Below are positions 11,210 through 58,985 of a stretch of DNA of 64,000 nt, piece after piece. This stretch comes from Anaerolineales bacterium (GTDB lineage Bacteria > Chloroflexota > Anaerolineae > Anaerolineales > UBA11579): the NCBI GenBank assembly GCA_024710875.1, contig JANJTX010000151.1:3173-67172 (forward strand), in the 5' to 3' direction. The notes under the pieces are model-generated. The model was given only the letters and a program-made list of their open reading frames with translations. It was not told where the DNA came from and did no database searches. Both the position numbers and the translations under genes were made by a program. How positions within the stretch are numbered: the first letter of the stretch is position 1; each line of letters begins with the position of its first letter.

Positions 11210-12504
<1,295 letters not shown>

Positions 12505-19122: not shown

Positions 19123-19584
19123 TTAGCGGGATTCGCCCGAATCCTCGCTGCGACTGCTCATCCGGCTGCGGCCGGAACGGAAACGCTGGACGACATCCAA
19201 CCGCAGGTTGGAGCGCCGCAGGGCGGCTTCCATCGCCAGATAGGTATCCAGGTCGCCGCCAGTTTTGGCGTCCGTCAGCATTTCCTGGGCGCGCTTGCGG
19301 GCTTCTTCGGCCCGCCCAATGTCAATTTCATCCACGCTTTCAGCGGCATCTGCCAGAATGGTTACGATGTCCGGCTGTACTTCCACCAGGCCACCGGTAA
19401 CCGTAAAGACTTCTTCTTCGGCGCCTTTACGTACCCGGATGACACCCAAACCAAGGGTAGCCAGCACCGGGGCATGGCGCGGCAGGATGCCCATCTCGCC
19501 CGACGAGCCGGGGACGACCACCATATCGACATCTTCTTCGTAGACCAGCCGGTCCTGCGAGACGATTTCACAGCGGATTGTCAC
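19123..19584 (-). CDS. atpC: F1 ATP synthase epsilon subunit (with Ser/Arg-rich C-terminal tail)
   Basis: The protein reads IVSQDRLVYEEDVDMVVVPGSSGEMGILPRHAP and lies immediately after atpD. The tail RSGRSRMSSRSEDSGESR extends beyond the usual length. Confidence 0.9.
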   Translation of the reverse strand: MTIRCEIVSQDRLVYEEDVDMVVVPGSSGEMGILPRHAPVLATLGLGVIRVRKGAEEEVFTVTGGLVEVQPDIVTILADAAESVDEIDIGRAEEARKRAQEMLTDAKTGGDLDTYLAMEAALRRSNLRLDVVQRFRSGRSRMSSRSEDSGESR

Positions 19585-19605
19585 AGCCTACCTCCTGGGA
19601 CCTGA

Positions 19606-21920
<2,315 letters not shown>

Positions 21921-27922: not shown

Positions 27923-27972
27923 AGCGCTGCGCTCCTTGCCAGTGTGCGGCGATTATACAGGACAAGCCCCGC

Positions 27973-30356: not shown

Positions 30357-30398
30357 GGATTAGTATACAGGAATCCGGCGGAGGGTCGGTAGCCAGTG

Positions 30399-31202: not shown

Positions 31203-31207
31203 GCCCG

Positions 31208-31972: not shown

Positions 31973-32940
31973 TTCTGGTTGACCCATGTGTCCAAATCCG
32001 GATGGGGAATGTCCAGGCCCTGCAAGAGGTTGCGGATGGAATTCCAATGCACCGCTTCCCACGCCCGCGGGCTGGAGTTGGCGTTGTGGGGAGCCAGCAT
32101 GACATTGTCCATCGTCAGCAGGGGGCTGTCTTTGGGTAATGGTTCGTATTCAAAGACATCCAGCGCCGCCCCGCCGAGGTGGCTGCTTTGCAGGGCGGCT
32201 ATCAAGGCCGGCTCATCCACCAGCGGGCCACGCGCGGCGTTAATCACCACCGCGCCGGGCTTCATCTGGGCCAGCGTCTCGGCGTTCACGATGTGGCGGC
32301 TGGTGGGATTGAGGTCGCAGGTGAGGGCGACAAAGTCAGCCCCCGCCAGTAGATTTTCGAGCGAGGTCATTTCCACGCCGACTTCGGCCACAAAAGCCGG
32401 GTCAATGTCAATAATATCGGTGCCGAGCAGGGTCATGCCAAAGGCCTGCGCCCGCCGCAACGCAGCCTTGCCGATGTTGCCCACCCCCACCACGCCCAGC
32501 GTGCACTCGCCCAGGCTGTGGCCAGCGATTTTCTGCCACTCGCCGCGCTTCATGGCCGCATCCATCCACGGCTGGCGGCGGGCAAAGGCCAGCATGTAGC
32601 CCAGAATGGTATCGGCCACCGGGATGGTGAAGGCATTGGGGGTATTGCCCACCAGCACGCCGTTGGCGTTGGCAAAGGCCTTATCAATCGAGTCGATTCC
32701 TGTGCCCCACTTGGAGATCACTTTGAGGCGCGGTAGGCAGGCCTGAATGACTTCCGGGGTGTAGCGGTCATCGCCGCAGATGGTGCCGTCAAACTGCCCG
32801 GCATAAGCCAGCAGGTCGGCGGCTTCCATGCGTTCTTCCACGGCTGGCACAAGTACCTCGAGCCCGTAATAATCAAAAACGGGCTGAAAGCGTTCCCGAA
32901 AGGGAATCATGTAGGGGGCGGTCAGGAGGACGGTGGGCAT
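31969..32940 (-). CDS. D-isomer-specific 2-hydroxyacid dehydrogenase family protein
   Basis: The NAD motif GVVGVGNIGKAALRRAQAFGM is present. The catalytic-region sequences ARGPLVDE and PHNANSS are also present. Confidence 0.85.
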   Translation of the reverse strand: MPTVLLTAPYMIPFRERFQPVFDYYGLEVLVPAVEERMEAADLLAYAGQFDGTICGDDRYTPEVIQACLPRLKVISKWGTGIDSIDKAFANANGVLVGNTPNAFTIPVADTILGYMLAFARRQPWMDAAMKRGEWQKIAGHSLGECTLGVVGVGNIGKAALRRAQAFGMTLLGTDIIDIDPAFVAEVGVEMTSLENLLAGADFVALTCDLNPTSRHIVNAETLAQMKPGAVVINAARGPLVDEPALIAALQSSHLGGAALDVFEYEPLPKDSPLLTMDNVMLAPHNANSSPRAWEAVHWNSIRNLLQGLDIPHPDLDTWVNQK

Positions 32941-32970
32941 GGCGGGATTCTAACAGAGCGCGGGGCGTAG

Positions 32971-33684
32971 TTACCCGCCCCTGATTCGCTCCAGCATCAT
33001 GTACTCAGCCACTTTGAAATCCAGTTCCTCATCAATATCCACCGCTTCGTCGCGCGGGATTTCAAACATGCGCGGCCGCGCCCCAAGGCGGTGGTTACGC
33101 GCCACCAGATTTTCACGCGTGAAAATGTAAATGCAGGAGTTTTCTTCGTAAATCGGGGGGAGGTCCTGGGTGCGCAGCAGTTCGCCCGGGTTGTGGTTCA
33201 CCGCTTGCCCGGCCGCATCATACAGCCGGGTTTGTAGGCGCGTGACAGAGAACAGCGAATCGTATTCGGCCCGCCCGGCCAGAAAAGCCTGGATCGCGCC
33301 GGAAATCGTCTCGGCTTTCAGCAGCGGATTGGTGCTGTGGGTTTGCAGGTAATAGTCGCTCGGGAATGCGGCGGTGTCATGCAGCAGGATGTCGTTCATC
33401 GGGATCATGCCATCCCGCAGGTGTTCGGGGCGCAGCAGGCGTTGCACCTGTGGGTATTCTTTTTCAAGGCCTTCCAGAATCACCGGGCTATCAGTATCCA
33501 CCACCACCCGCGTAACCTCCGCGCAGGCCAGCAGGGCTTCCAGAATGTGCTGGTATAGCGGTTTGCCCGCCAACGGGCGGTAGTTTTTGCCCGGTACCCG
33601 CTCCGAGGAGTGGCGCATGGGCAGCAGGGCGGTAAGGGTGGGTGTCGCTTGGGTCACGTCTGGCTCCGCATATTCTCTCGCCAT
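32971..33684 (-). CDS. Cytidylyltransferase (NeuA/SpsF-like family), paralog 2, divergent N-terminal motif
   Basis: LLPMRHSSERVPGKNYRPLAGKPL is a P-x-R-x-x-S-x-R-x-P-x-K-N variant. The start is set at MAREYAE, because the upstream 67 codons of the track ORF look non-coding. Confidence 0.7.
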   Translation of the reverse strand: MAREYAEPDVTQATPTLTALLPMRHSSERVPGKNYRPLAGKPLYQHILEALLACAEVTRVVVDTDSPVILEGLEKEYPQVQRLLRPEHLRDGMIPMNDILLHDTAAFPSDYYLQTHSTNPLLKAETISGAIQAFLAGRAEYDSLFSVTRLQTRLYDAAGQAVNHNPGELLRTQDLPPIYEENSCIYIFTRENLVARNHRLGARPRMFEIPRDEAVDIDEELDFKVAEYMMLERIRGG

Positions 33685-33772
33685 TATACGGGAAAGCCTT
33701 CGGCAAAGGGACAACCATGCCGGATTTATGGGACATCTGCCCCTGCTCGCGTCTGTCCGCTGGGTTGACAAT

Positions 33773-33792
33773 ATATTCAGGAATTTGAATAT
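33773..33792. promoter_or_regulatory. ArsR/SmtB-type operator candidate
   Basis: ATATTCA-ggaatt-TGAATAT is a perfect 7-bp inverted repeat. It overlaps the arsR-family start codon and sits just downstream of a TTGACA hexamer at 33765-33770. Confidence 0.55.
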
Positions 33793-34153
33793 GAAACCCC
33801 CGAGCTTTGAATCCGCCGCCAGCCACACCCTGCAAGCCTTGCGCCAGCCCTTCCGCATCCGACTTTTGCGCGCCATTGGCAGCAACGAATGCTGTGTGTG
33901 CCATCTGGAGGCTCAATTGGGCCAGCGTCAGGCTTACATCTCTCAACACCTGATGGCGTTACGGGCGGCGGGTTTGCTGCGGGCACGGCGGCGCGGCAAG
34001 TTTGTGTATTACCGGCTGGCAAAACCAGCCGTGCTGGACCTACTGGAAGCCGCTGCCGCTTTGGGCGGAATAGAAGTGGAGCCGCTTCCGCTGTTGCCAG
34101 CACAAGAAGACTGCGCCTGTGCAGCCTGTCAGACATCTATAGAAGACAGATAG
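33791..34153 (+). CDS. ArsR/SmtB family metalloregulator
   Basis: The helix-turn-helix region ECCVCHLEAQLGQRQAYISQHLMALRAAGLL is an ELCVCDL-like metal site. A C-terminal Cys cluster CACAAC is also present. Confidence 0.85.
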   Translation: MKPPSFESAASHTLQALRQPFRIRLLRAIGSNECCVCHLEAQLGQRQAYISQHLMALRAAGLLRARRRGKFVYYRLAKPAVLDLLEAAAALGGIEVEPLPLLPAQEDCACAACQTSIEDR

Positions 34154-35758: not shown

Positions 35759-36859
35759 ATGCCCGCCCAACTTCCGCTGGACCAGATACTGCAAGGCGAT
35801 TGCATCCAGACGCTGGCCGATTTACCGGCTGAAAGCGTGGACCTCGTCTTTGCTGACCCACCCTATAACCTTCAACTCCAAAACGACCTCTACCGCCCCA
35901 ACCGCACCAAGGTCAGCGCGGTGGACGATGCCTGGGACCAGTTCGCCGACTTTGCCGCCTACGACGACTTCACCCGCGCCTGGCTGGCAGCCTGCCGCCG
36001 GGTGCTCAAACCCAGCGGGGCGTTGTGGGTCATCGGCACTTATCACAACATCCACCGCATTGGCGCGCTGTTGCAGGACCTCGACTTCTGGCTATTGAAC
36101 TCGATTGTGTGGGTCAAAACCAACCCCATGCCGAATTTTCGCGGGGTGCGCTTTACCAACGCCCATGAAACCCTGCTGTGGGCGCAAAAAGAGCGCGGCG
36201 CGCCCTACACGTTTCACCACCACGCCATGAAGGGGCTGAATGACGACAAGCAGATGCGCAGCGATTGGGAAATCCCACTGTGCAGCGGAGCCGAGCGCAT
36301 CAAAATCAACGGCGAACGCGCCCACTCAACCCAGAAACCGGAAGCCCTGCTCTACCGGGTGATTCTCGCCAGCACCCACCCGGGCGATGTGATTCTGGAC
36401 CCGTTTTTTGGCAGCGGTACAACCGGCGCAGTCGCCAAAAAACTGCGCCGCCATTGGATTGGCATAGAACGCGACCCGGCCTATATCGAAGTCGCCCGGG
36501 CGCGCATCGCCGCCATCCCGACCCCCACAACAGCAGACACCCTGTTTGCCACGCCCAACCCGCGCAAACTGCCGCGCCTGCCCTTTGGCCGCCTGCTGGA
36601 AGCCGGGCTGCTGCAACCCGGCCAGAAACTCTTCCTTAGAAAATCTGGAGAGATTTTTGCGCAGGTACGCGCCGACGGGTTGCTGGAGTACAATCAGCAG
36701 CGCGCCTCGATTCACGCTCTGGCACGCGACCTCGCCAACGGCCCGGCCAATGGCTGGGAAGTCTGGCACTACGAGCAGGACGGCCAGCGTTACCCGATTG
36801 ACCGCCTGCGCCAGCAGTTGCGCCAGCAGGATTCTGAAATCAAAAACTCTATTTCATAA
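35759..36859 (+). CDS. Beta-class N6-adenine DNA methyltransferase, CcrM-like, no adjacent endonuclease
   Basis: Motif IV (FADPPYN) precedes motif I (DPFFGSGTTGAVA). The length of about 366 aa includes a C-terminal extension (RLPFGRLLEAGLL...) as in CcrM-type enzymes. Confidence 0.85.
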   Translation: MPAQLPLDQILQGDCIQTLADLPAESVDLVFADPPYNLQLQNDLYRPNRTKVSAVDDAWDQFADFAAYDDFTRAWLAACRRVLKPSGALWVIGTYHNIHRIGALLQDLDFWLLNSIVWVKTNPMPNFRGVRFTNAHETLLWAQKERGAPYTFHHHAMKGLNDDKQMRSDWEIPLCSGAERIKINGERAHSTQKPEALLYRVILASTHPGDVILDPFFGSGTTGAVAKKLRRHWIGIERDPAYIEVARARIAAIPTPTTADTLFATPNPRKLPRLPFGRLLEAGLLQPGQKLFLRKSGEIFAQVRADGLLEYNQQRASIHALARDLANGPANGWEVWHYEQDGQRYPIDRLRQQLRQQDSEIKNSIS

Positions 36860-48590: not shown

Positions 48591-49559
48591 CTATCCGGAT
48601 CTCTCTTGCGGCTTCTGGTTCTGGGCCAGCGCCACCATACCGCTCAAGCCACCCAGGTTCATCGTGTCCACCGCGCTGGAAGGCACAATCACCAATGCGC
48701 CTTTTTCTTTCAGGCCTTCAAAGAGCATGTTCATCGCCCGCAGGTGCAGGGCGGTCGGGTTGTTGATGTAGGCCTCCGAGGCGGTCGCGAAGGAGTGTGC
48801 AATCTGTTCTTCCGATTCACCCAAAATCACGCGCGCCTGGCGTTCGCGTTCGGCCTGGGCCTGGCGCGACATGGCATCTTCCAGATCCTTGGGGATGACG
48901 ATATCCCGGATTTCCACCGACTGCACGCTCACGCCCCAGGGGGTGGTGCGCTCATCGATGATTTTCTGCAGGTCGGCATCCATCTTGGCCCGCCCGGCCA
49001 GTACATCCGCCAGCATCAGCGAACCAATCACTTCGCGCAGGGCGGTCTGCGAAGCCCAGGTGATGGCGGTGCGGTAGTTCTCCACTTCGAGGGCGGCCTT
49101 TTCGGCATCCCACACCACCCAGAACAGCACCGCATCTACATCCACCGGCACCGTGTCTTTGGTGAGGGTTTTCTCGGCGCTGAAGGGCGAGACCATCACG
49201 CGGTGGTCAATCCATTCGGTCGCCACATCCACAATCGGGATGAGCCAGAACACGCCCGGCCCTTTCAACCCGTGGAACTTGCCAAACCGCAGCACCACGG
49301 CTTTCTCCCACTGGTTGGCGACCTTGAGTGAGAACAGCACATAGATGGCCGCCAGCACCCACACCGCCAGCCAGGCAAAGATGGCGAAGTCCGAGGCGTT
49401 CAGACTGACATCCATATAGATGGTGCCGAGGGTGGCGATGAGAAAACCCACCGTGGCCAGAGTGGCCGAGAGGCCATTCAGCCGCTGCGGGTTATTGTCC
49501 ACGCCGAAGTTCTTCAAACGCTGGTCAAAAATTTTGTTGATGCTCATGTCATTCTCCAT
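48591..49559 (-). CDS. SPFH/band-7 (stomatin-like) membrane protein
   Basis: An N-terminal TM hairpin is followed by the SPFH core (VVLRFGKFHGLKGPGVFWLIPIVD ... TKDTVPVDVDAVLFW) and a coiled-coil QAERERQARV. Confidence 0.85.
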   Translation of the reverse strand: MENDMSINKIFDQRLKNFGVDNNPQRLNGLSATLATVGFLIATLGTIYMDVSLNASDFAIFAWLAVWVLAAIYVLFSLKVANQWEKAVVLRFGKFHGLKGPGVFWLIPIVDVATEWIDHRVMVSPFSAEKTLTKDTVPVDVDAVLFWVVWDAEKAALEVENYRTAITWASQTALREVIGSLMLADVLAGRAKMDADLQKIIDERTTPWGVSVQSVEIRDIVIPKDLEDAMSRQAQAERERQARVILGESEEQIAHSFATASEAYINNPTALHLRAMNMLFEGLKEKGALVIVPSSAVDTMNLGGLSGMVALAQNQKPQERSG

Positions 49560-49983
49560 TAGTGGATATTTCAGGTTCGTCGCTGGCGGCCGGGTGACCT
49601 TCGGCCTCCCAGCTGGCTAACGCCTGTTCAAAGGCGGCCCGCGCCTCGGCCGGGCTGAAATTCAAACGATCGGCCTCGACCGCATAAATTTGTGCCAGCC
49701 GCGTCAGACTGCGCTGGCGCAGGCGGGCGGTCTCTTCTACTGAAACGGGCTCCAGGATAAATGTGCCGCGCCCATGCTGGGTGGAGATGATGCCTTCTTC
49801 ATCCATCAGGCGGTAGGCGCGTGCCACAGTGTTGAAATTCACCCGCAGGTCGGCGGCCAGTTGGCGCACGGTCGGCAGTTGGTGGCCGGGCTGCAACTCC
49901 CCGGTGGCGATGGCATGCTTGATCTGGTCCATCAACTGGATGTAAATGGGGACGTGGGTGGTGAAGTCAATGTCAAAGTTCAT
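49549..49983 (-). CDS. GntR family transcriptional regulator, short YtrA-like subtype
   Basis: The winged HTH reads IYIQLMDQIKHAIATGELQPGHQLPTVRQLAADLRVNFNTVARAYRLMDEEGII. The C-terminal domain is short (144 aa total). The start is set at MNFDIDF, because the track ORF extension is low-complexity. Confidence 0.85.
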   Translation of the reverse strand: MNFDIDFTTHVPIYIQLMDQIKHAIATGELQPGHQLPTVRQLAADLRVNFNTVARAYRLMDEEGIISTQHGRGTFILEPVSVEETARLRQRSLTRLAQIYAVEADRLNFSPAEARAAFEQALASWEAEGHPAASDEPEISTNGE

Positions 49984-50134
49984 CTGTTTCGTCCTGTTTG
50001 TATCATTGTTTGTTTGTATGATTGTATATTTGTTGGATTGTTTTGTCAAGCGCGCTCCCGGGCCTGGATTCGGGCCGTACGGGCGGGTAAAATCGGGTAT
50101 CCTATAGCGGCTGTATCTATCCCCTTTCAAGGAC

Positions 50135-50800
50135 TTGTGTGTGACTGACCCCTGGCATTCTTACAATGAATTTATGCTCACCGGTGAGGCTGAACGCTTC
50201 ACCAAGCTCTTTGCCCGCTACGAACTCTTCAAGCAGGTGCTGGAGCTGCCCGGCGACATCGTCGAGTGCGGCGTATTGAAAGGCACCGGCCTGTTCCTGT
50301 GGGCGCGACTGCTCGAAATCTACTCGCCGCGCTCCAAGCGCAAAGTGGTGGGGTTTGATACCTTTGCCGGCTACCCCGCCGATACCAGTCTGGAGGTGGA
50401 CCGCCAGACCGGGCAGGAATACAAACGCCAGCAAATTCAGGATCCGGCCGATGTCAGCCGCGAGCGGTTGCTGCAAACCGCCGAATCGCTCGGCCTCTCG
50501 CACCGCATTGAACTGATTCCCGGCAACGCCACCCAGACCATCCCGCAGTATGTGGCCAGCCAGCCCGGCTTCCGCATCGCCCTGCTGGACCTGGACTTTG
50601 TGCTCTACGACCCCACCAAAACCGCCCTCGAAACCTTCTACCCGCTGGTGGTGCCGCACGGCATCATCGTCTTTGATGAGTATGCCGTCTCCGGCATGGG
50701 CGAATCAGACGCGGTGGATGAGTACTTCAAGGACAAGTCGGTGGTCTTCAACCAGTTCACCTGGGCCGCCAGCCCGACCGCCTACTGCGTGAAACCATGA
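50135..50800 (+). CDS. TylF/MycF-like SAM-dependent O-methyltransferase
   Basis: GDIVECGVLKGTGLFLWA, GFDTFAGYP, and LLDLDFVLYDPTKTALETFYPLVVPHGIIVFDEY resemble the macrocin-O-methyltransferase family. The start codon is uncertain: TTG at 50135, GTG at 50141 and ATG at 50174 are all possible. Confidence 0.7.
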   Translation: MCVTDPWHSYNEFMLTGEAERFTKLFARYELFKQVLELPGDIVECGVLKGTGLFLWARLLEIYSPRSKRKVVGFDTFAGYPADTSLEVDRQTGQEYKRQQIQDPADVSRERLLQTAESLGLSHRIELIPGNATQTIPQYVASQPGFRIALLDLDFVLYDPTKTALETFYPLVVPHGIIVFDEYAVSGMGESDAVDEYFKDKSVVFNQFTWAASPTAYCVKP

Positions 50801-51723
50801 TCGATCAGGAAGCCAAACTCAAGCGCATCGCCGCTCTGGGCTTTGACTATGAGGCCCAGCCCAAAGAGCACCAGACCGCCTGTAACCTGTGCGGCGAAAC
50901 CCGCCTGGTGGTCATTACGCACCAAGACCGCTACGGCTACCCAGCACCCGCCAATACCTGCTGGCGCTGTGGCCTGACCTTCATTAACCCGCGCATGACC
51001 GCCAGCGCTTACGAAGCGTTCTATGGCGGCACGTACCGCCCGCTGGTCAGCGCCTACCACGGCCGCGACATCAACGCTCAATCGATTCAGGCCGAGCAAC
51101 TCACCTACACCATCGAGCGCGAGGCCTTCCTCACGCCGTTTCTGGCCGGGCGGGCGGTCCGTACCATGCTGGATATCGGCGGCTCGACCGGCGTGGTGGC
51201 CGAGCGCTTAGCCCAAACCTACAACCTGACTGCCACCGTGCTGGACCCCTCGCCGGATGAACTGGAAGAAGCCCGCCGCCGCGGCCTGGAGACCATCACC
51301 GGCCTGGTGGAAGATGCCGACTTCGGCCAGCAGCAGTTTGACTTCGTCATCCTGTGCCAGACGATTGACCACCTGCTGGATATTCGCGGCACGTTGGCGA
51401 AAATCCGCCAGTTGCTGGCCCCCGAAGGCCTGTTCTTTGTGGACATCGTCGATTTCCGGGCCGCCTATCTGCGGCACTGGCGCATCAATGAAGCCCTCAA
51501 AATCGACCATCCCTATTACCTCACCCAGGCGACCGCCGAGGCCTACCTGGCCCGCGCCGGCTTTGACATCCTCGGCAAGGCCTACGCCGCCGACCATCTG
51601 CACATCTCCTACCTGTGCGCCGCCGGCACGCCGGACCCGGCCGCCCTGCCCAGCCCGGAGAGTGTGAACGAGCAACTGCACGAAATCCGCACCGTCCAGA
51701 ACACCGGCCACCGGTGGGCGTAA
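50797..51723 (+). CDS. Class I SAM-dependent methyltransferase with N-terminal Cys4 zinc ribbon
   Basis: CNLCGE...CWRCG is the zinc ribbon. SAM motif I reads MLDIGGSTGVVAERL, and an acidic loop VLDPS follows. It overlaps the upstream gene by 4 nt. Confidence 0.8.
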   Translation: MIDQEAKLKRIAALGFDYEAQPKEHQTACNLCGETRLVVITHQDRYGYPAPANTCWRCGLTFINPRMTASAYEAFYGGTYRPLVSAYHGRDINAQSIQAEQLTYTIEREAFLTPFLAGRAVRTMLDIGGSTGVVAERLAQTYNLTATVLDPSPDELEEARRRGLETITGLVEDADFGQQQFDFVILCQTIDHLLDIRGTLAKIRQLLAPEGLFFVDIVDFRAAYLRHWRINEALKIDHPYYLTQATAEAYLARAGFDILGKAYAADHLHISYLCAAGTPDPAALPSPESVNEQLHEIRTVQNTGHRWA

Positions 51724-51724
51724 G

Positions 51725-51774
51725 TAGTTGGCCGCAAGTTGTTAGCATTTGAAATGCACTCGAACGGCCAACTA
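51725..51774. other. 10-bp-stem hairpin in an AT-richer 138-bp spacer inside the plus-strand glycan cluster
   Basis: TAGTTGGCCG ... CGGCCAACTA has perfect arms and a 30-nt loop. The loop itself contains GCATTTGAAATGC. There is no U-run. Confidence 0.4.
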
Positions 51775-51861
51775 TTAAAAGTAGTCATTGGGAATCTATG
51801 AGTGCAAACATGCTGAAATTTGAGGACAACATGCCTAAAGACTTTCGGTGGACTACTTAGC

Positions 51862-52560
51862 ATGACCGCGGTGTTGGGGCTCATCCCGGCCCGCGGTGGC
51901 TCCAAGGGCATCCCGGGCAAGAACATCCGCCCGCTGGCGGGCAAACCCCTGCTGGCCTACACCGCCGAAGCAGCCCGCGCCAGCGGCGTGCTTGACCGCC
52001 TGATTCTCTCTACGGATGCCGAAGACATTGCCGCGGTGGGCCGCTCCGCCGGGCTGGAGGTGCCGTTCATACGCCCGCCCGAACTGGCCGCCGATGACAC
52101 CCCGATGCTGGCCGTCATCCAACATGCGCTGGCATACCTCGCCACTGAAGGCTACACCCCGGAGATCATTGTGCTGCTCCAACCGACTTCGCCGCTGCGC
52201 ACCCCGCAACACATCCGCACCGCGGTGGCCGAACTGCAATCCCGCGACGTAGATAGCGTGGCGAGCGTGGTGGCGGTACCGGCGGTGTATTCGCCGTATT
52301 ATGTAATGAAGATAGAAGATGACCGCCTGTTGAATTTTCTACCGGGCGGCCAGCAATACACCCGCCGCCAGGACGCCCCGCCGGCCTACTGCCGGGATGG
52401 CACGGTCTATGCCTTCTGGCGCAAGACTCTGGAAGAAAAAGGCAGTATTTACGGCGATAGCTGCTGGCCGCTGATTCTTGCGGAAGATGAATCCATCACG
52501 GTGGATACCCTTGCGGACTGGCAAAAGGCCGAGGATCGGCTCGCCCGTTTTTCTGGCTGA
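51862..52560 (+). CDS. CMP-sugar cytidylyltransferase (NeuA family), paralog 3
   Basis: The canonical N-terminus reads IPARGGSKGIPGKNIRPLAGKPLLAYT, with a later LQPTSPLR motif. Confidence 0.85.
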   Translation: MTAVLGLIPARGGSKGIPGKNIRPLAGKPLLAYTAEAARASGVLDRLILSTDAEDIAAVGRSAGLEVPFIRPPELAADDTPMLAVIQHALAYLATEGYTPEIIVLLQPTSPLRTPQHIRTAVAELQSRDVDSVASVVAVPAVYSPYYVMKIEDDRLLNFLPGGQQYTRRQDAPPAYCRDGTVYAFWRKTLEEKGSIYGDSCWPLILAEDESITVDTLADWQKAEDRLARFSG

Positions 52561-52569
52561 TTTGACCCG

Positions 52570-53871
52570 ATGAAAAAACCATTGCGATTCGGTTTTCTGG
52601 TTTATCGCACTCCAGTCTTGAAGACGATGGGAGTTTTGATAGATGCTTGTCTGAATCAGGGACTGGACGTGTACATTTTCTATTCTGGCGAAACATCAGA
52701 TCCCGGCAAGAGCTACCAAAACGCAACCCCGGCAAATATTCCCCGCTTTCCAGATCGCCAACCCCAGTATGTGGCTTGCCAGCCGCATGAAATCAGTCTG
52801 CTGGCGGCTGAATATCGCCTCGACGCATTCATCACCCATGAGGGCTATCACACCCTGCAGGGCTTCGGCCAGTTGGAGAGCGTTCGCACCCTGCGCCAGC
52901 AAGGCACGGCTGTCTTTTCGCTGACCCATTTCTTTGAGGTCTCGCGCCTGCCGCTGGAAGCCCTCGACCACTTTGACCTGACCTTCTTCATGAGCGAGTT
53001 TGGCATCGAGCTGATGTTTGACCTCAACGCCGCCACCCCAGCCGAGCGCGCCCACTACCGGCCGCGCATGGCCACCGCCGGTTCGCCAACCTTTGACCAG
53101 CTCGCGGGGTTGGATCAGACCGCCGCCCGCGCTCACTTCGGCCTGCCGCCCGACCGGCCAGTGGTGGTGCTGGCCGCCCCGGTGCTCTCGCCCGTGACCC
53201 TGTGGCGCTGGGTGGTGTGGCGCGAACCCGCCCTGCGCACCCGCCTGAAACGCGCTCTCAGCGCCCGCCGGCTGGACTTCCTGCCCCAGATTTTCAGCGG
53301 CCCGTCGTTTGAACGCTGTGTGGCGGCCGTGCGCGCCTTCTGCGACCGCCACAACGCCGTGCTGGTGGTCAAGTCGCGCCTCAAGCAAGACGACCCGCCC
53401 TACCTGATTGCCGCCGCCGACCATTATCTGGACGGCGCCGATGAAGAATATTATCCGCTTTTCACCATGTACCGCCTGCTGGCCGCCGCTGACCTGGTGG
53501 TGAGCGCCCAGAGCATGTCTTTGGTGGAGGCGGTGGCCGCCAACGTCCCGGCCGTCAATATCCATGTGCCTTTCCGCGAAATCGATGAACCCAGCCGCAG
53601 CACCTATGCCCGCTACCTGGAAGTGCTGCTCGGCAGCGCCCCGGACAGCCTGATGAACACCCCCGGTTGCATGTGGAGCCAGCCGTGGCAATCCTTCCCG
53701 CGCTGGCTGAACGGCAAAACGCTGGCCGACTTCCGGCTCGATTCAACCCGGGCCGATGAATACCGCCAGCACTATCTGGGCATGGAAGCCACCCCCAGCA
53801 GCCAGCGCATACTGGACACCATTCGCGACTACCTCAACACCCCTGTGGAGGCCCGCCATGCGCATGTCTGA
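52570..53871 (+). CDS. Hypothetical 433-aa protein, possible GT-B-like / capsule-type transferase
   Basis: I recognise no signature motif. The two-lobed alpha/beta-like pattern (FGFLVYR...VYIFYS; VVVLAAP...VLVVKSR...AADLVVSAQSMSLVEAVAANVPAVNI) is reminiscent of GT-B enzymes such as KpsS- or TagF-type transferases. This is inference only. Confidence 0.35.
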   Translation: MKKPLRFGFLVYRTPVLKTMGVLIDACLNQGLDVYIFYSGETSDPGKSYQNATPANIPRFPDRQPQYVACQPHEISLLAAEYRLDAFITHEGYHTLQGFGQLESVRTLRQQGTAVFSLTHFFEVSRLPLEALDHFDLTFFMSEFGIELMFDLNAATPAERAHYRPRMATAGSPTFDQLAGLDQTAARAHFGLPPDRPVVVLAAPVLSPVTLWRWVVWREPALRTRLKRALSARRLDFLPQIFSGPSFERCVAAVRAFCDRHNAVLVVKSRLKQDDPPYLIAAADHYLDGADEEYYPLFTMYRLLAAADLVVSAQSMSLVEAVAANVPAVNIHVPFREIDEPSRSTYARYLEVLLGSAPDSLMNTPGCMWSQPWQSFPRWLNGKTLADFRLDSTRADEYRQHYLGMEATPSSQRILDTIRDYLNTPVEARHAHV

Positions 53872-54760
53872 ACTCGGTTCCAGTCCGGCCGACCGCCGCC
53901 GGCGCTGGCGCAGTTGGCTAACCGCGCAACGACTGTGGGACGAGGACTTTGCCCCGGTTTTCATTTGCGGCGCCTCCGGCAGCGGCACGACCCTCATCGC
54001 CAGTCTGCTGAATCAGAACTATGAAGTCGGTCTGTACCTGAACGAAAGCGTGCGCATGCTGAACACCGGCCGCGACCTGTGGATGGACAAAGCCGATGAA
54101 TACCCGGATGTAAACGCCTATTACAACGCTCTCTTCATTCCCGCTCACCGCCCCCCGGCCGCCATCCGCCGCCAGTTGCTGCGGCTGTACCGCCGCGAAA
54201 TCATCTATCCCAAAACCAGCCCGGTAGTGATTGATAAAGGCCCAAACGCCCATCTGGTGCGTTTTGAATGGCTGCGCTCGGCTTTTCCAGCTGCCCGCTT
54301 TGTGTTCCTCTTCCGCCAGCCGGTCGAATCGGTTGAAGGTCTGCGCCGTAAGTGGAAGCAGGTGTTTGGCGGCTCACCCCTTACCGACCTGTGCGATTTC
54401 TGGCTTAATATGCATGAACGCTTTCTGGAAGATTCAGCCGACTACCGCGGGCAGGTCTACCCGCTGGCCTACGACACGCTGGTCGCCGACCCGCCCGCCA
54501 GCCTGGCCCGGGTGGCGGCCTTTGCCAGGCTCACGACCCGTCCCACCCCCCTGCCGCTGCCAGACCGCCCGGCCAAACCCGGCAAGGGCCTGCGCAATGT
54601 GGTGGATGGCAAAATTGTGGTGATGCCCGCTGCCCACCAGCGAGTGGACTCCAGCCTGACGCCTGAAGAAGAACTCCTGGTAGCCGAACGCCTGCTGCCG
54701 GCCTACACGCGTTACAAGCAAATCGAAGCCGCCTTTCTGGCCGGCCAGCCCCAGCCATGA
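53858..54760 (+). CDS. Sulfotransferase family protein
   Basis: Three sulfotransferase-like elements are present: a 5'-PSB loop FICGASGSGTTLIASLL, a 3'-PB-like FLFRQPVESVEGL, and a C-terminal LAYDTLVADPPASLARVAAFARL. The start is set at the ATG at 53858, overlapping the upstream gene by 14 nt. Confidence 0.75.
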   Translation: MRMSELGSSPADRRRRWRSWLTAQRLWDEDFAPVFICGASGSGTTLIASLLNQNYEVGLYLNESVRMLNTGRDLWMDKADEYPDVNAYYNALFIPAHRPPAAIRRQLLRLYRREIIYPKTSPVVIDKGPNAHLVRFEWLRSAFPAARFVFLFRQPVESVEGLRRKWKQVFGGSPLTDLCDFWLNMHERFLEDSADYRGQVYPLAYDTLVADPPASLARVAAFARLTTRPTPLPLPDRPAKPGKGLRNVVDGKIVVMPAAHQRVDSSLTPEEELLVAERLLPAYTRYKQIEAAFLAGQPQP

Positions 54761-55848
54761 GCCGCAAACCGCGCATCGCCTTTCTGCTGCAAATGTTCGG
54801 CGTGGGCGGCATGCCACAATGGCTGTACCGCCTGGCCGCCAGTCTGCGCGACGAGTTCGATTTCTACTTCATCGCCACCCACTCGGATTACATCCTGCCC
54901 GAATACCGGGCCGTCGCCCACACCGCCCACCTGCCCCCCAGCAAGTGGCGGCTGGCCGCCTGGCTGGCGCGCCACCAGATTGACCTGGTGCAGTTCGCCA
55001 ATCTGCGCCTGTATGCAGATGCCGCCCGGCTGGCGGGTGTCCCGGCGATTGTGGAGCGCACCGATGGCCTGCGCAACGGGGCCGCCCTCGGCCCAAAACA
55101 CGGTTTGGCAGCGGTGGTCGCCAGCACGCAGGGCACCATCCCGCACATTGCGCGCCTGATTGACCGCCAGAAAATCCACCTGATTTACAATGGCATTGAC
55201 CACGCCCATTACCAACAGGCCACCCCGGAGCGCTTTGGCTTTGCTCCCGAGGATGTGCTGATTGGCCGGACATCACGGCTGGCGGGCGGCAAGAACATCT
55301 CGCTGCTCATTCAGGCGGTACTGCGCCTGCGGGCCGAGCCGCGCCACGAGCACGTGCGGCTGGTCATCTGTGGCGGAGATAACACCGAACGCGGCGCACC
55401 GCCAATGCTGGCCGCCCTGCAGGCCGAGGCCGCCCCGCTGGGCGCGAGCGTGGTCTTCACCGGCGAAGTCGCCGACCCGGCCGCCATCACCGCCGGCTAT
55501 GACATCGCCACCTGCACCTCGCGCCCGGAAAACGAAGGCATCCCGAATTCGCTGCTGGAAGGCATGGCGGCCGGCAAGCCGCTGGTCGCCACCGCCGTGG
55601 GCGACATCCCCGAAATCCTCACCGAAGGCGATAACGGCCTGCTGGTACCCAGCGATGATTTGCCGGCTCTGACCGAAGCCCTGGCGCGCCTCATCGCCGA
55701 CCCGGCCCTGCGCCAGCAGATGGGCGCCGCCGGGCAGGCTCGCATTGCCCGTGACTTTGACCTCGCAGCCCAGGCCGAAAAATACGCTGCCCTCTACCGC
55801 CAGTTGCTGGCCGAACACGGCCGCTGGCCGCGCCGCGCCTGGCGCTAA
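54757..55848 (+). CDS. Glycosyltransferase family 4 (GT-B, group 1)
   Basis: The C-terminal E-x7-E-type region reads SRPENEGIPNSLLEGMAAGKPLVAT, followed by GLLVP. It overlaps the sulfotransferase gene by 4 nt. Confidence 0.85.
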   Translation: MSRKPRIAFLLQMFGVGGMPQWLYRLAASLRDEFDFYFIATHSDYILPEYRAVAHTAHLPPSKWRLAAWLARHQIDLVQFANLRLYADAARLAGVPAIVERTDGLRNGAALGPKHGLAAVVASTQGTIPHIARLIDRQKIHLIYNGIDHAHYQQATPERFGFAPEDVLIGRTSRLAGGKNISLLIQAVLRLRAEPRHEHVRLVICGGDNTERGAPPMLAALQAEAAPLGASVVFTGEVADPAAITAGYDIATCTSRPENEGIPNSLLEGMAAGKPLVATAVGDIPEILTEGDNGLLVPSDDLPALTEALARLIADPALRQQMGAAGQARIARDFDLAAQAEKYAALYRQLLAEHGRWPRRAWR

Positions 55849-55855: not shown

Positions 55856-56452
55856 ATGCCGCCCCTCCCGCGCCGCTTTTACAACCGCCCCACGCTGGAA
55901 GTCGCCCGCGATCTGCTGGGGACGCGGCTGGTGCGCATCGAGAACGGCCAGCGCATCAGCGGCCTCATCCTTGAAACCGAAGCCTACTGCGGCGAAACCG
56001 ACCTCGGCTGCCACGCCAAAGCCGGCCTCACGAATCGCACCGCCCCGCTCTACGGCCCACCGGGCCACGCCTATGTGTATTTCACGTACGGCCATCACTG
56101 GCTGTTCAATGTGGTCACCCGCCCCGCCGGTGAGCCGGAAGCGGTTCTGGTTCGGGCGATCCTGCCGCTGGAAGGAATCGATGTCATCGAACAGCGGCGC
56201 GGCCAGCAACCGCGCCAACGCTGGACCGACGGCCCCGGCAAACTGGCCCAGGCCCTCGGCATCGATGGCCGCTTGAACACCCACAACCTCACCGCCCTGG
56301 ATGCCGAAGTCTTCATCGAACGCGCCCGCCCGCTGCCGGATGCTTTCGTAACCACCACGCCCCGCATCGGGTTATATACTGTGCCGGAGCCGTGGAAGAG
56401 CACCCCCTGGCGCTTTCTGGCGACCCTGCCGGAAAACTTCACAGTAGAATAA
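55856..56452 (+). CDS. mpg: DNA-3-methyladenine glycosylase (Mpg/AAG family)
   Basis: The protein reads FYNRPTLEVARDLLGTRLV, ETEAY, and AHAYVYFTYGHHWLFNVV. Confidence 0.9.
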   Translation: MPPLPRRFYNRPTLEVARDLLGTRLVRIENGQRISGLILETEAYCGETDLGCHAKAGLTNRTAPLYGPPGHAYVYFTYGHHWLFNVVTRPAGEPEAVLVRAILPLEGIDVIEQRRGQQPRQRWTDGPGKLAQALGIDGRLNTHNLTALDAEVFIERARPLPDAFVTTTPRIGLYTVPEPWKSTPWRFLATLPENFTVE

Positions 56453-56494
56453 GCCCGCACAATCGCAAGTCAGACCGACCCACAAGGAGCACGT

Positions 56495-57295
56495 ATGAAA
56501 CTCTTGGAAGGAAAAAACGCCCTCGTTTTTGGCGTGGCCAATAACCGCTCGATTGCCTGGGGCATCACCCAGGCCTTTCACCAACACGGCGCAAAGGTCG
56601 GCATTTCCTATGCCGGCGAGATGATGGAAAAACGCGCCCGCCCGCTGGGCGAATCGCTCGGGCTGGACTTCATCGAGCCCTGCGATGTCTCCAGCGATGC
56701 CGAGATTGAGGCGGTGGCCGCCAAAGCCAAAGCCCATTTCGGCCAGATTGACATCCTCGTGCATGCCATCGCCTTTGCCCCGCGCGAAGAACTAACCGGC
56801 GCCTTTTACACCACCAGCCGGGCCGGCTTCGCCACTGCTCTCGACATCAGCGTGTATTCTTTTATTGCGCTGGCGCGCGCCTTCCAGCCCCTGCTGCGGT
56901 CGGGCGGTTCCATGATGACGCTCTCGTACTACGCCGCCGAAAAGGTCGTACCGAATTACAACGTAATGGCGATTGCCAAGGCCGCCCTCGAGAACACCAC
57001 CCGCTACCTGGCGCGCGACTTTGGCCCGCAGGGTGTGCGCGTCAACGCCATTTCGGCCGGCCCCATCCGTACCCTGGCCGCCGCCGGCGTGGGCGGCTTC
57101 CGCGACCTCTACAAACGCTTTGCCGAGGTCTCGCCCATGCGTCAGGAAATCACGATTGAGGATGTCGGCGGCACGGCGGTGTACCTCGCCTCCGATCTCT
57201 CGGCCAAGACGACTGGCGAAATCATCTTTGTGGATGGCGGCTTCAACATCGTCGCCATTGCGGATGACATCGTTAGCGACGACAGCGCCGAATAA
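56495..57295 (+). CDS. fabI: Enoyl-[acyl-carrier-protein] reductase (NADH)
   Basis: The GVANNRSIAWGI motif and the Y-x6-K catalytic pair (YNVMAIAKAALE) are present in a 266-aa protein. Confidence 0.92.
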   Translation: MKLLEGKNALVFGVANNRSIAWGITQAFHQHGAKVGISYAGEMMEKRARPLGESLGLDFIEPCDVSSDAEIEAVAAKAKAHFGQIDILVHAIAFAPREELTGAFYTTSRAGFATALDISVYSFIALARAFQPLLRSGGSMMTLSYYAAEKVVPNYNVMAIAKAALENTTRYLARDFGPQGVRVNAISAGPIRTLAAAGVGGFRDLYKRFAEVSPMRQEITIEDVGGTAVYLASDLSAKTTGEIIFVDGGFNIVAIADDIVSDDSAE

Positions 57296-57383: not shown

Positions 57384-57839
57384 ATGTTTCGTAAACGCAC
57401 AGACGCACAAACAACTACCGCCGCCCCGGCCAGCACGCCGGAACGCATCACCTCTGTACTGGGCGATGGCGTGGTCTTCCTCGGCAAAATCAGCGGGCGC
57501 GGCGGCGTGCGCATTGAAGGCGCGTTTGAAGGCGAAATCGCCCTCAACGGCACGCTGGTGGTTGGCACCACCGGGCGCGTGACCTGCCCGCATTTGCAGG
57601 CCCAGACCGTCATTGTGGCGGGTGCCCTGCGCGGCGACATCACCGCCGAGAAGGTCGAAATCCGCAGCACCGGCCGGGTGTGGGGTAACGTGACCACCGT
57701 GGCCTTCTCCACCGAAGAAGGCGCGTTCTTGCGCGGCCAAATTCAAATGGAAGAACAGGTAGAGCTGGACCTGCCTGAAACCGGAGATGCCAGCGTAGAA
57801 GCCCCGCCTCCGTTGAATGAAACCACTCCCTCTGCATAA
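57384..57839 (+). CDS. Bactofilin family cytoskeletal protein
   Basis: The beta-helical repeat pattern reads GKISGRGGVRIEGAFEGEIALNGTLVVGTTGRVTCPHLQAQTVIVAGALRGDITAEKVEIRSTGRVWGNV. Confidence 0.85.
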   Translation: MFRKRTDAQTTTAAPASTPERITSVLGDGVVFLGKISGRGGVRIEGAFEGEIALNGTLVVGTTGRVTCPHLQAQTVIVAGALRGDITAEKVEIRSTGRVWGNVTTVAFSTEEGAFLRGQIQMEEQVELDLPETGDASVEAPPPLNETTPSA

Positions 57840-57890: not shown

Positions 57891-58985
57891 TTATTGTTGG
57901 GCAATCACAATTGTCAGGCCCGTGCCGCTGGCCGCCGGCCCCGCAAACAGGGTGACAATCGCCCCGCTGCTACTGCTGAAAGTCAGCGTACCAACCGGCG
58001 GAAATACACTTTCGCTGGTCAGGGTATAGCCGAGCGCCGCCATTTCGGTCTTGTAGAATTCAATCACCAGTTCGAGGGACGAATCGGTTTCATAGGTCAT
58101 CAGGCCCGGCAGGGTGGTGAGGTTGCGGGCATCCGGCATGGCAGGGTACGGGGTGGCGCCCTCTTCGCCGGGCGGTGGGCAATCCGCCGGGGGCTGGATA
58201 TCAAACGCCTGACTGGCCGGGATGACATCCCACTGGTAGCGCACATCGCCCTCAAAGTTGCGATCGTTGGTCAGCACTTCGCTCACGCCCCGCCCGTTCA
58301 GCACCAACCGGATAATGGCGCCATCCGTCTGGCTGATGTACAGCGCCCCTTCTTCCAGGCTGCGCACTTCGCCGCCCGCCACGGTCGTGAGGTCTACGTT
58401 GTCCATCGTGATGGCGTAACGGTCAGTCAGCACGCCGTTAATCGTGACGCCGGTTTCCACCCGCTGGGCGGTGCCATGCAACAGGCCGCCGGTATCCATC
58501 ATGGCGTCGTAGGGATTTTGCTGTTCCGAGTTGGCGGTCACGATGCAGCCAAAGGAAGGCGAATAGAGATAGTCGGTTTCTTCGATGTCGGCCACTTCGA
58601 GCCATTCCAGCCCACCAGCAATGGCGAGGTCGTTGGGCTCAAACCGGAAATAGGAACGCGGCGGCAGTTGGTTGCGCTGGCCGTTCACCAGTACCTGCCG
58701 GAAATATTCGCTGCCGTCCGGGTTGGTCGCGGTGAAATTGAAATCCATCCGGACTTCATAAGCCGGACTGCTGGTTTCTTCGTACAATGCCGGGTCATCC
58801 AAGTTGAGTTCCTGCGGGTTGGGCGAATCTCCGCCGGGTGCGGCCGCCGGTGCGCCGCCAGAGTCTCCACTGGCATCTGTTTGAGCCGGTGCAGACGATT
58901 CGCCGCTTCCCGGCAGCGACACACCCGAACAGGCCAGGGCCGCCACGCCGAGGACCAGCAAAACCAGAAATAATCGCTTGTGCAT
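57891..58985 (-). CDS. Hypothetical lipoprotein
   Basis: LVLLVLGVAALAC reads as a lipobox. A Gly/Ser/Pro linker follows. I recognise no domain. Confidence 0.6.
   Translation of the reverse strand: MHKRLFLVLLVLGVAALACSGVSLPGSGESSAPAQTDASGDSGGAPAAAPGGDSPNPQELNLDDPALYEETSSPAYEVRMDFNFTATNPDGSEYFRQVLVNGQRNQLPPRSYFRFEPNDLAIAGGLEWLEVADIEETDYLYSPSFGCIVTANSEQQNPYDAMMDTGGLLHGTAQRVETGVTINGVLTDRYAITMDNVDLTTVAGGEVRSLEEGALYISQTDGAIIRLVLNGRGVSEVLTNDRNFEGDVRYQWDVIPASQAFDIQPPADCPPPGEEGATPYPAMPDARNLTTLPGLMTYETDSSLELVIEFYKTEMAALGYTLTSESVFPPVGTLTFSSSSGAIVTLFAGPAASGTGLTIVIAQQ

Follow-up and report, generated by a model that had tools for sequence, protein, structure and literature searches.

Knock-out analyses in Tannerella forsythia have identified Tanf_01245, TFUB4_00887, and BFO_1060 as transferases of pseudaminic- or legionaminic-acid derivatives without which the S-layer O-glycan lacks its terminal nonulosonate (PMC5420450, PMC5378307). 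These proteins are described as having a TagB/GT-B domain with HP and D/E-D/E-G motifs, and a methyltransferase gene is adjacent to their genes; they agree completely over the C-terminal 241-246 residues, whereas their N-terminal regions differ according to the Pse or Leg type (PMC5420450). In PmST1, the histidine of the HP motif is in contact with the donor phosphate, and in polysialyltransferase, it influences the Km for CMP-Neu5Ac (CMP, cytidine monophosphate) (PMC2169525). In TagF, two histidines, H444 and H584, are catalytically important (PMC5974469). The present analysis concerns a stretch of 64,000 nucleotides (nt) from an Anaerolineales bacterium (contig JANJTX010000151.1, positions 3,173 to 67,172; G+C ~61%), referred to below as the window. 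On its plus strand, positions 50141-55848 are occupied by a module of six genes, one of which encodes a protein of 433 amino acids (aa), termed here the orphan. The module is rather probably a cassette for the activation of a nonulosonic sugar to its CMP form and for its transfer, with the orphan as the transferase and with methylation and sulfation of the product.

The Orphan and Its Family

The orphan gene (52570-53871, plus strand) is proposed to encode a CMP-nonulosonate-dependent glycosyltransferase, on the basis of an AlphaFold2 model, Foldseek comparisons, and gene contexts; here as throughout, the functions given are predictions from sequence, structure model, and gene context. The start at 52570, which gives 433 aa, is preferred over that of the public 414-aa model, which begins at M20, because the homologs start level with residue 5 and M20 lies beyond the first Rossmann β-strand (residues 6-10). 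The public model is probably 19 codons short (window positions 52570-52626).

Scans with Pfam, even at E <= 10, and with NCBIfam gave no match for the orphan, and hence none to PF04464 or NF046086, in agreement with the original prediction, made from the letters of the DNA, in which this was a protein without any nameable motif. A structure prediction, suggested there as a check, has now been run and gave a confident GT-B model (AlphaFold2 with 13 homologs; pLDDT 89.3, pTM 0.89), in which two Rossmann-like domains are followed by C-terminal helices. Foldseek comparison with the PDB returned GT-B enzymes only, namely BshA/MshA, UDP-GlcNAc 2-epimerases (UDP, uridine diphosphate), TagF, LpxB, and NeuC, with E values of 1e-10 to 1e-8, TM scores of 0.5-0.57, and identities of 8-14%; TagF (3l7i) was matched with E = 1.4e-8 and TM 0.53-0.55. 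According to the model, the fold of the orphan is GT-B, and Foldseek fixes this fold and not the subfamily.

A word-indexed search found 13 homologs of the orphan, and an exhaustive profile search found 877 representative clusters at 50% identity, 363 of them at E <= 1e-30. When an alignment of 62 family members was used in a homolog search, 14 proteins were returned, all unnamed. Scanning of a genome collection with the orphan protein alone gave one locus (L006, in a close relative), and scanning of metagenomes with an 8-sequence alignment, which also missed the known JGI members, gave 0 matches. Judged from these searches, the family is real, sizeable, and unnamed; it lacks a Pfam model, and its members are labeled "hypothetical" at NCBI and JGI.

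In GT-B enzymes, the C-terminal domain binds the nucleotide donor and the N-terminal domain usually forms the acceptor site. The residues conserved throughout the orphan family are almost all in the C-terminal (donor-side) domain, and D136, G171, F257, C258, K268, R270, D284, P296, S315, and E320 are near-invariant in the 62-sequence alignment. Through its relatives, the orphan is linked to curated families. PF04464 (TagF-type glycerophosphotransferases) weakly matches 8 of the 62 members (best 1.1e-6), DUF6716 matches 3, and NF046086 (BFO_1060 family glycosyltransferase) weakly matches 19 (best 3.6e-9); checked singly, the NF046086 hits reach 17-26 bits against a cut-off of 200, and they are partial and follow the same order along the profile. 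The orphan-family profile also aligns with the ribitol-phosphate polymerase TarL (8va1; E = 0.0032), with VKSRxK opposite FKMHP and S315...E320 opposite SS...E. A search of solved structures with the 13-sequence orphan profile found nothing meaningful.

No HP dipeptide is present in the window orphan. The aligned position is K268-S-R270, with R270 at the HP histidine, and that histidine is taken as the counterpart of TagF H584; the position of H444 is not reliably alignable. H-E-G is found at residues 90-92, of which E91 and G92 are invariant in eight Anaerolineae-group sequences and unconserved family-wide. Because the family is related to HP-motif enzymes but fails their defining motif tests, it appears to form a distinct branch. 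From the profile links and the modeled fold, the orphan is probably a divergent TagB/TagF-like GT-B enzyme and a nonulosonate transferase.

Gene Contexts of the Orphan Family

The orphan homologs were compared in ten independent contexts with usable flanks (loci are given L numbers); L017 (2.8 kb) provides an eleventh. A CTP_transf_3 gene is part of the cluster in nine of the ten contexts, and NeuB is found in four (L003/L004, L005, L011, and L013). The sole context lacking CTP_transf_3 is L012, a contig of 10.8 kb, which has a CBS-domain nucleotidyltransferase instead; we take this protein to resemble PtmE of legionaminic acid synthesis. PseB-, PseC-, and PseG-like genes are situated near the orphan homolog in L009, and genes of these types are carried by two branches of the family. 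A class I methyltransferase gene usually adjoins the orphan homolog, and an ABC exporter is encoded in five contexts (L003, L005, L011, L012, and L013). In L017, an Epimerase_2 gene lies upstream of the orphan homolog and a sulfotransferase-like gene downstream.

The Partner Enzymes of the Module

Six co-oriented and partly overlapping open reading frames (ORFs) are found on the plus strand within 50135-55848. Genes called independently on an identical contig of 7.9 kb point to 50141 rather than 50135 as the probable start of the first gene and to 51862 rather than 51820 as that of the cytidylyltransferase gene, so that the corrected module spans 50141-55848. The third-position GC of the six ORFs is 0.72-0.82, against 0.61 for the genome, and the ratio of nonsynonymous to synonymous substitution rates (dN/dS) for all six genes against the close relative L006 is 0.008-0.11; judged from these two measures, the ORFs are real genes and not chance reading frames. 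In comparison with L002, dN/dS is 0.17-0.22 for the four genes that have a clear ortholog there. These ratios place all six genes under purifying selection. Five of the six proteins, all but the orphan, have Pfam matches above the gathering thresholds, and none of the six has a transmembrane segment. The six-gene cluster and the enzyme classes that had been read from the letters are therefore borne out, Pfam naming five of them. The gene overlaps read at 50797/50800 and 54757/54760 are exact, at 4 nt each, and the one at 53858/53871 measures 14 nt given the sulfotransferase ATG at 53858, which is also the start in the independent call.

The cytidylyltransferase (51862-52560, plus strand, 232 aa) resembles CMP-nonulosonate synthetases of the NeuA/PseF type. 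It matches PF02348 (CTP_transf_3) with 95.2 bits against a threshold of 22.6, and it aligns over its full length (residues 5-227) with the solved CMP-Neu5Ac synthetase 6ifd (E = 5e-35); KdsB enzymes, which act on Kdo (3-deoxy-D-manno-octulosonate), align over the N-terminal half only. The cut-off of the PseF equivalog (TIGR03584), 205.7 bits, is not reached by this enzyme (164.2 bits) or by either of the other two cytidylyltransferases of the window (the three score 164, 101, and 73). Because the score is below this cut-off, the sugar used by the module enzyme cannot be named. It had been called a third NeuA paralog; the assignment to CTP_transf_3 and to the NeuA/PseF type stands, and the name is too specific, with all three proteins below the equivalog level. 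The enzyme is 58% (L003) and 55% (L005) identical to copies that share an operon with NeuB.

The gene immediately before it (50797-51723, plus strand) encodes a class I methyltransferase of 308 aa dependent on S-adenosylmethionine (SAM), with an N-terminal four-cysteine zinc ribbon (PF13489, Methyltransf_23, 61.6 bits). The zinc ribbon had been read from the sequence, and its CxxC...CxxC cysteines are indeed kept in the orthologs. This protein has 59% identity to the product of an L005 gene sited between NeuC and CTP_transf_3, in an operon of the order NeuB, NeuC, methyltransferase, and CTP_transf_3. From these alignments, the genes for the cytidylyltransferase and for the zinc-ribbon methyltransferase both have orthologs within NeuB-containing operons.

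Between these two genes lies an AT-rich insertion of 135 nt (51716-51850; 43% GC, genome 61%), at which the blastn alignment breaks. It is missing from L006 and L002, where the two flanking genes abut, and no second copy was found among the sequences compared. The insertion contains a 9-bp inverted repeat (AGTTGGCCG / CGGCCAACT), and its predicted fold energy, calculated without a shuffle control, is -38.8 kcal/mol.

The first gene of the module (50141-50800, plus strand) encodes a TylF/CalS11-like SAM-dependent sugar O-methyltransferase of 219 aa, an assignment made earlier from the sequence and now supported by matches to PF05711 (TylF, 69.6 bits) and also Methyltransf_24. Its best solved relative is CalS11, a TDP-rhamnose (TDP, thymidine diphosphate) 3'-O-methyltransferase (E = 2.5e-21), and in L003 its ortholog is located directly upstream of NeuB. 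The protein is 99.5% identical to that of L006, and dN/dS of the gene is 0.008.

The remaining two genes encode a sulfotransferase and a glycosyltransferase. The former (53858-54760, plus strand) is a soluble protein of 300 aa in the Sulfotransfer_3 family, which matches PF13469 with 65.4 bits (threshold 27) over profile positions 1-213 of 216. Its 5'-phosphosulfate-binding loop, GASGSGTT (GxSGSGTT; residues 39-46), was read from the sequence, and its 3'-phosphate motif, RQPVESVEG, located by eye only, is atypical; the enzyme presumably depends on PAPS (3'-phosphoadenosine-5'-phosphosulfate). It has 91% identity to the L006 ortholog with dN/dS of 0.108, and no relative was found among solved structures. 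The GT4-family glycosyltransferase (54757-55848, plus strand, 363 aa) matches PF13692 (Glyco_trans_1_4) with 107 bits and PF00534 (Glycos_transf_1) with 92.6 bits, and reaches no NCBIfam equivalog (best TIGR03088, 133 bits against a cut-off of 409). Its gene is the most conserved of the module across island variants, with 76% identity to the same-position copy in L003.

Proposed Pathway and Alternative Readings

The gene contexts, the orthology of the cytidylyltransferase and methyltransferase, and the solved relatives together make a CMP-nonulosonate pathway, with the orphan as its transferase, the most economical reading of the module. The carbohydrate-tailoring character given to the module in the original prediction is supported by the enzyme classes. 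Its methylated and sulfated product is a reasonable extrapolation from the relatives of the methyltransferases and the sulfotransferase and from the orthologs in NeuB operons, and the product itself stays conditional here. What follows, from donor and acceptor to the sequence of steps and the kind of product, is as we infer it. The module would be a cassette of six genes for soluble cytoplasmic enzymes, situated within a surface-glycan island of variable content. The NeuA-type cytidylyltransferase would activate a nonulosonic sugar to its CMP form, and the orphan would transfer the nonulosonate from the CMP donor to an acceptor glycan with release of CMP. In the orphan, R270 of K268-S-R270 would take the place of the donor-phosphate-binding HP histidine, the C-terminal domain would bind the cytidine nucleotide, and the N-terminal domain would bind the acceptor. 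The GT4 enzyme would build part of the underlying glycan from a nucleoside diphosphate (NDP)-hexose, and the two methyltransferases and the sulfotransferase would decorate the nonulosonate or a neighboring sugar. The nonulosonate synthase, the priming transferase, the PAPS supply, and export would be encoded elsewhere, or the sugar may be scavenged.

This last provision reflects what the window lacks. A tblastn search of the 64 kb with NeuB, NeuC, DegT, and the ABC exporter of the relatives found only an unrelated ABC ATPase. By tblastn and by Pfam, which covered most ORFs, no nonulosonate synthase, PAPS synthesis gene, priming transferase, or module exporter was found in the 64 kb, with the exception of a Wzx-like flippase upstream. 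The module is also not a self-contained polysaccharide or O-glycan locus, with no initiating phosphoglycosyltransferase, no flippase or ABC exporter, and no polymerase or oligosaccharyltransferase in 50.1-55.8 kb. The islands of the window, L006, and L002 are without NeuB and are yet under purifying selection; it would therefore appear that the module is functional but depends on genes elsewhere, with a distant synthase, scavenging, or a different CMP-activated acid as the candidate explanations.

Several observations weigh against the assignment of the module to nonulosonate transfer. NeuB, PseI, LegI, and NeuC are absent from the 64 kb window and also from the islands of L006 and L002, and gene neighborhood is correlative evidence. 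The window orphan itself matches no PF04464, NF046086, or solved structure by sequence. The links to TagF/TarL and BFO_1060 come via relatives and are weak (17-26 bits against 200 in the members checked singly), and the Foldseek matches of the model (TM 0.5-0.57) do not tell one GT-B subfamily from another. Of the motifs that mark known GT-B sialyltransferases, the orphan lacks HP, and in place of D/E-D/E-G it has an H-E-G that is kept only within the Anaerolineae group. The positions of K268, R270, S315, and E320 come from sequence alignment.

It is improbable that the orphan is instead a TagF/TagB-type phosphotransferase, which would move a polyol or sugar phosphate from a cytidine diphosphate (CDP)-linked donor into a teichoic-acid-like linkage. 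The links to solved and curated families do include TarL (E = 0.0032) and PF04464 (best 1.1e-6, in 8 of 62 members), Foldseek returned TagF as one of its matches, and the window has no nonulosonate synthase. However, a near-invariant arginine (R270) stands opposite the histidine of TarL K-M-H-P, a residue equated by inference with TagF H584. Moreover, no context contains a TagD/TarI/TarJ-type gene for CDP-glycerol or CDP-ribitol synthesis (a PF01467-type cytidylyltransferase or a ribitol-phosphate dehydrogenase); in nine of ten contexts, the cytidylyltransferase next to the orphan belongs to the CMP-acid-sugar type (PF02348), and NeuB occurs in four. A role in biosynthesis, as a NeuC-like hydrolyzing 2-epimerase or a PseG-like nucleotide-sugar hydrolase, is quite improbable as well. 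Foldseek does place UDP-GlcNAc 2-epimerases, NeuC among them, near the top of its matches (TMt up to 0.65), and L003 has NeuB and the cytidylyltransferase and no recognizable NeuC; but Pfam Epimerase_2 (PF02350) matches none of the 62 family members at E <= 0.01, and the orphan stands beside a true Epimerase_2 gene in L005 and L017 and occurs together with a separate PseG-like gene in L009. The orphan is furthermore under purifying selection in the islands that lack NeuB (window, L002, and L006), and its hypervariable N-terminal half suits changing acceptors better than a fixed UDP-sugar substrate. The identity of the orphan as a NeuC-like epimerase was rejected, given the missing Pfam match and the adjacent true epimerases.

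The module could, finally, be the decaying remnant of a NeuB-NeuC locus that no longer makes anything. More distant relatives (L003 and L005) have NeuB and NeuC in the corresponding island, from which they are missing here, and the 135-nt AT-rich insertion parts two genes that abut in relatives. Against such decay, all six ORFs are intact, and dN/dS is 0.008-0.11 against L006 and 0.17-0.22 (four genes) against L002. The layout without NeuB is, in addition, kept in three lineages, in which the orphans are 65-82% identical and the sulfotransferase and GT4 content differs. A remnant is hence very improbable, and it was rejected on the dN/dS values. A CMP-nonulosonate cassette remains the preferred reading of the module.

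A Variable Island with a Mosaic Orphan Gene

Comparison with relatives indicates that the module is an island of variable content enclosed by conserved flanks, which are the GntR operon on one side and the genes mpg-fabI-bactofilin on the other. In the same slot, L002 has the same enzyme classes, with a different sulfotransferase gene before the orphan and a non-orthologous GT4, and L003 has in addition NeuB, three sulfotransferases, and an ABC exporter. The DNA of L006 is 88-93% identical to the window over 49.4-62 kb, and FabI is 98.9% identical. Within this stretch, positions 52548-52886 of the plus strand, which include the first ~106 codons of the orphan gene, have no nucleotide match in L006 (a blastn gap), and L006 has one extra sulfotransferase gene at this site. 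Residues 1-110 of the orphan are 44% identical between the window and L006, with saturated dS (2.7), whereas residues 121-420 are 95% identical, with dS of 0.32. Because dS is 2.7 in the first segment and 0.32 in the rest, the comparison indicates that the N-terminal segment was imported by recombination and is not a product of fast local evolution.

In the model, the exchanged part comprises strands 1-4, which make up the first half of the Rossmann domain at the N terminus. Since it co-varies with a sulfotransferase gene, and by analogy with known GT-B enzymes, it is suggested that the acceptor chemistry may change along with the swapped segment. A mosaic between near-identical genomes is a natural experiment, which could reveal which part of the transferase sets acceptor specificity. 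A wider proposal may be offered tentatively: the orphan might found a new CMP-nonulosonate transferase family at the CAZy level, in which an arginine replaces the HP histidine, an acceptor-side half-domain recombines together with sulfotransferase genes, and the partners make O-methylated, sulfated, nonulosonate-capped glycans of Anaerolineae.

The Upstream Operon

A second glycan cluster is encoded on the minus strand at 24788-33885. It comprises CTP_transf_3, 2-Hacid_dh, a short-chain dehydrogenase/reductase (SDR), a DUF115/MptE-like protein, a PMT_2 GT-C enzyme, GT2, a further CTP_transf_3, Sulfotransfer_3, and a Wzx-like flippase. The DUF115 protein has >7,500 homologs; among those listed, from across Anaerolineae and Chloroflexota, the best 120 all have 64% identity or more. 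The operon core, CTP_transf_3 through GT2, is found again in GCA_004297445.1 (L014 7274-16101) and in a distant 409 kb Chloroflexota contig (L016 7541-14198). In GCA_004297445.1, the tail of the operon encodes a methyltransferase, CTP_transf_3, and a second dehydrogenase, and lacks Wzx and the sulfotransferase. Several sulfotransferases belong to the L016 cassette itself, along with a GT2-sulfotransferase fusion, Wzy, and Capsule_synth; neither NeuB nor an orphan homolog was called there within 10 kb on either side.

The genes around the L016 cassette (4852-6569, 12351-14198, and 19570-20295) include three Sulfotransfer_1 genes and a 615-aa GT2-Sulfotransfer_3 fusion. Since this cassette is ringed by sulfotransferase genes, glycan sulfation may be a general trait of Chloroflexota rather than peculiar to the window. 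The cytidylyltransferase of the upstream operon is repeatedly paired with the 2-hydroxyacid dehydrogenase, and NeuB is never nearby where this pair was seen. From these contexts, at least the first upstream cytidylyltransferase appears to belong to a cassette without NeuB wherever it is seen, and to speak of three NeuA paralogs in the window is to overstate the case. Nothing specific was found in the literature on this DUF115/2-Hacid_dh/cytidylyltransferase cassette, which looks like an uncharacterized core glycoconjugate system that uses a CMP-activated acid.

The original prediction linked the two clusters, with transcription and co-occurrence as its tests. They do share a contig in a relative too, but as one pathway the claim finds no support in the form stated, with 16 kb of unrelated genes between them and the whole region syntenic. 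The intervening genes are those for an ArsP permease, a DNA methylase, PepF, DinB, dNK, and a histidine kinase. One of them (35759-36859) encodes an N6/N4 DNA methyltransferase with a C-terminal RAMA domain, beside which no restriction enzyme was called; it is kept at the same position in GCA_004297445.1 (L014 5599-6702).

That the two clusters jointly make one methylated, sulfated glycoconjugate, the upstream operon supplying flipping and extracytoplasmic transfer, is doubtful, and a number of facts nevertheless speak for it. The clusters are ~15-16 kb apart on one contig both in the window and in GCA_004297445.1, and Sulfotransfer_3 and CTP_transf_3 genes occur in both. The module encodes no membrane proteins, and the upstream operon has a Wzx-like flippase of 14 segments and a GT-C enzyme, so that a hand-over from soluble assembly in the module to flipping and GT-C transfer by the upstream operon is possible. 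The export and sulfation genes also look reciprocal: in the window, Wzx and the sulfotransferase lie at the end of the operon (24788-27218) and the module has no exporter, and in GCA_004297445.1, the reverse is found, with a module that contains an ABC exporter and a 306-aa protein without assignment (L003 13577-16410) and an operon without Wzx and sulfotransferase. This complementarity, however, comes from two genomes only, and synteny of the whole region accounts for the shared contig in the relative, in which the 16 kb between the clusters hold unrelated genes. The distributions differ as well: the same tool that lists >7,500 homologs of the DUF115 protein (best 120 listed, at least 64% identical) finds 13 for the orphan. 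The core cassette occurs in the distant Chloroflexota contig with its own sulfotransferases and Wzy and with no orphan homolog within 10 kb, and the module varies between near-identical genomes. From these comparisons, the upstream operon is a widely conserved separate system and the module is an accessory island.

Flanking Genes and the Divergent Intergenic Region

Upstream of the module, a YtrA-type GntR regulator of 144 aa is encoded on the minus strand (49549-49983, ATG at 49983; Pfam GntR, 59.7 bits), outside the module itself. Its gene is the first of an operon with Band_7, YhfC, and ABC transporter genes; this confirms the divergent arrangement of the module and the regulator operon noted at the outset. 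The flank on this side is common to L002, L003, and L006. The GntR and TylF genes are separated by 157 bp (49984-50140). A promoter scan predicted a sigma-70-like promoter on the minus strand (50049-50021, score 11/12) and no plus-strand promoter for the module. Two 15-nt direct repeats, TGTTTGTAT(C/G)ATTGT, are situated at 49995-50009 and 50011-50025, with a spacing of 16 nt, and overlap both the -10 box and the 5' leader of the minus-strand GntR promoter. The repeats are a candidate operator for autoregulation of GntR and possibly also for control of the divergent glycan module.

The downstream flank (55856-57295, plus strand; Pfam), likewise outside the module, encodes a methylpurine-DNA glycosylase and a FabI-like SDR, and is followed by a bactofilin gene (57384-57839) on the same side; the order mpg-fabI-bactofilin is common to L001, L002, L003, and L006. 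The glycosylase gene (55856-56452) begins 8 nt past the GT4 stop codon with no terminator predicted between them, and it is downstream of the glycan island in every relative examined. Because of this short gap, the lack of a predicted terminator, and the position kept in all relatives examined, the DNA-repair gene is probably co-transcribed with the glycan genes. Past the bactofilin gene, a minus-strand ORF of 364 aa (57891-58985) has no Pfam match; in L006, an ORF of similar size occupies the same position (9193-10290, minus strand). Rfam and tRNA scans of the window were empty, and the island is thus not tRNA-associated.

Comparison with Known Systems

The module is a fairly ordinary kind of surface-sugar cluster, and what is new here is the identification of the orphan as a probable divergent TagB/TagF-like GT-B enzyme, the connection of the module with nonulosonates despite the missing synthase, and the mosaic. 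The orphan family (~880 clusters, in near-constant company of a CMP-sugar synthetase) would escape motif-based searches, because the HP motif by which such enzymes are recognized is missing. The islands of Anaerolineae set sulfotransferases beside nonulosonate genes, and the sulfation of bacterial glycans is poorly understood at the gene level; nothing specific on sulfated or methylated bacterial nonulosonates was found in the literature. Anaerolineae are a common lineage in sludge, and the module offers candidate genes for the sulfated, sialic-acid-rich slime of wastewater sludge. Chemical study of the extracellular polymeric substances (EPS) of granular sludge revealed that sialylated and sulfated polymers co-occur, with few matching genes (PMC10483923). 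If a sulfated, nonulosonate-capped glycan is indeed made, the islands would provide a genetic basis for these polymers (PMC10483923). The system is of moderate interest to glycobiologists and to researchers of sludge EPS.

Among the known systems, the TylF-like enzyme of the window has the SAM-dependent TylF fold of CalS11 and other sugar O-methyltransferases of this family. The substrate of CalS11 is a nucleotide-activated sugar. The window protein differs in that it is shorter, covering only profile positions 90-246 of 264, and its ortholog adjoins NeuB and not a deoxysugar or polyketide cluster.

The orphan shares with TagF, TagB, and TarL (PF04464; 3l7i, 8va1) the GT-B fold, and the C-terminal motifs K-x-[H/R] and then S...E can be aligned. 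The use of a cytidine-nucleotide donor with CMP as the leaving group, which is proposed for the orphan, is also a feature of those enzymes. On the other hand, the orphan has an arginine for the histidine of K-M-H-P and no Pfam match at E <= 10, and its neighbors are predicted to make CMP-acid sugars, not CDP-glycerol or CDP-ribitol. The sialyltransferases of GT38, GT52, and GT80 (Freiberger et al. 2007, PMC2169525) have the same two-Rossmann GT-B architecture and a CMP-nonulosonate donor, as proposed for the orphan; moreover, a basic or hydrogen-bonding residue is found at the start of the C-terminal domain, where those families contact the donor phosphate. Unlike them, the orphan family as a whole lacks HP and D/E-D/E-G, (H/E/Q)-E-G at 90-92 being confined to the Anaerolineae subgroup, and no sequence or profile match of the orphan to these families was found.

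As a module, the cassette resembles the sialic-acid scavengers, which combine an activating enzyme and a transferase without a local synthase. Scavengers of the Haemophilus influenzae type have a CMP-sialate synthetase and a sialyltransferase and lack NeuB. The window module differs from them in that no uptake system or lyase is linked to it, and a distant NeuB is equally possible.

The transferases of T. forsythia (NF046086) are, like the orphan, soluble proteins of ~420-445 aa with a TagB/GT-B-type domain. In both cases, the gene is situated beside CMP-nonulosonate biosynthesis genes and adjacent to a methyltransferase gene, and a conserved C-terminal part is combined with an N-terminal part that differs between alleles and borders on an exchanged block of genes. 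In contrast, the window orphan lacks an NF046086 match and the HP motif, with K-S-R at the aligned position; T. forsythia belongs to Bacteroidota and the window to Chloroflexota, and the module of the latter adds sulfotransferase partners to the set.

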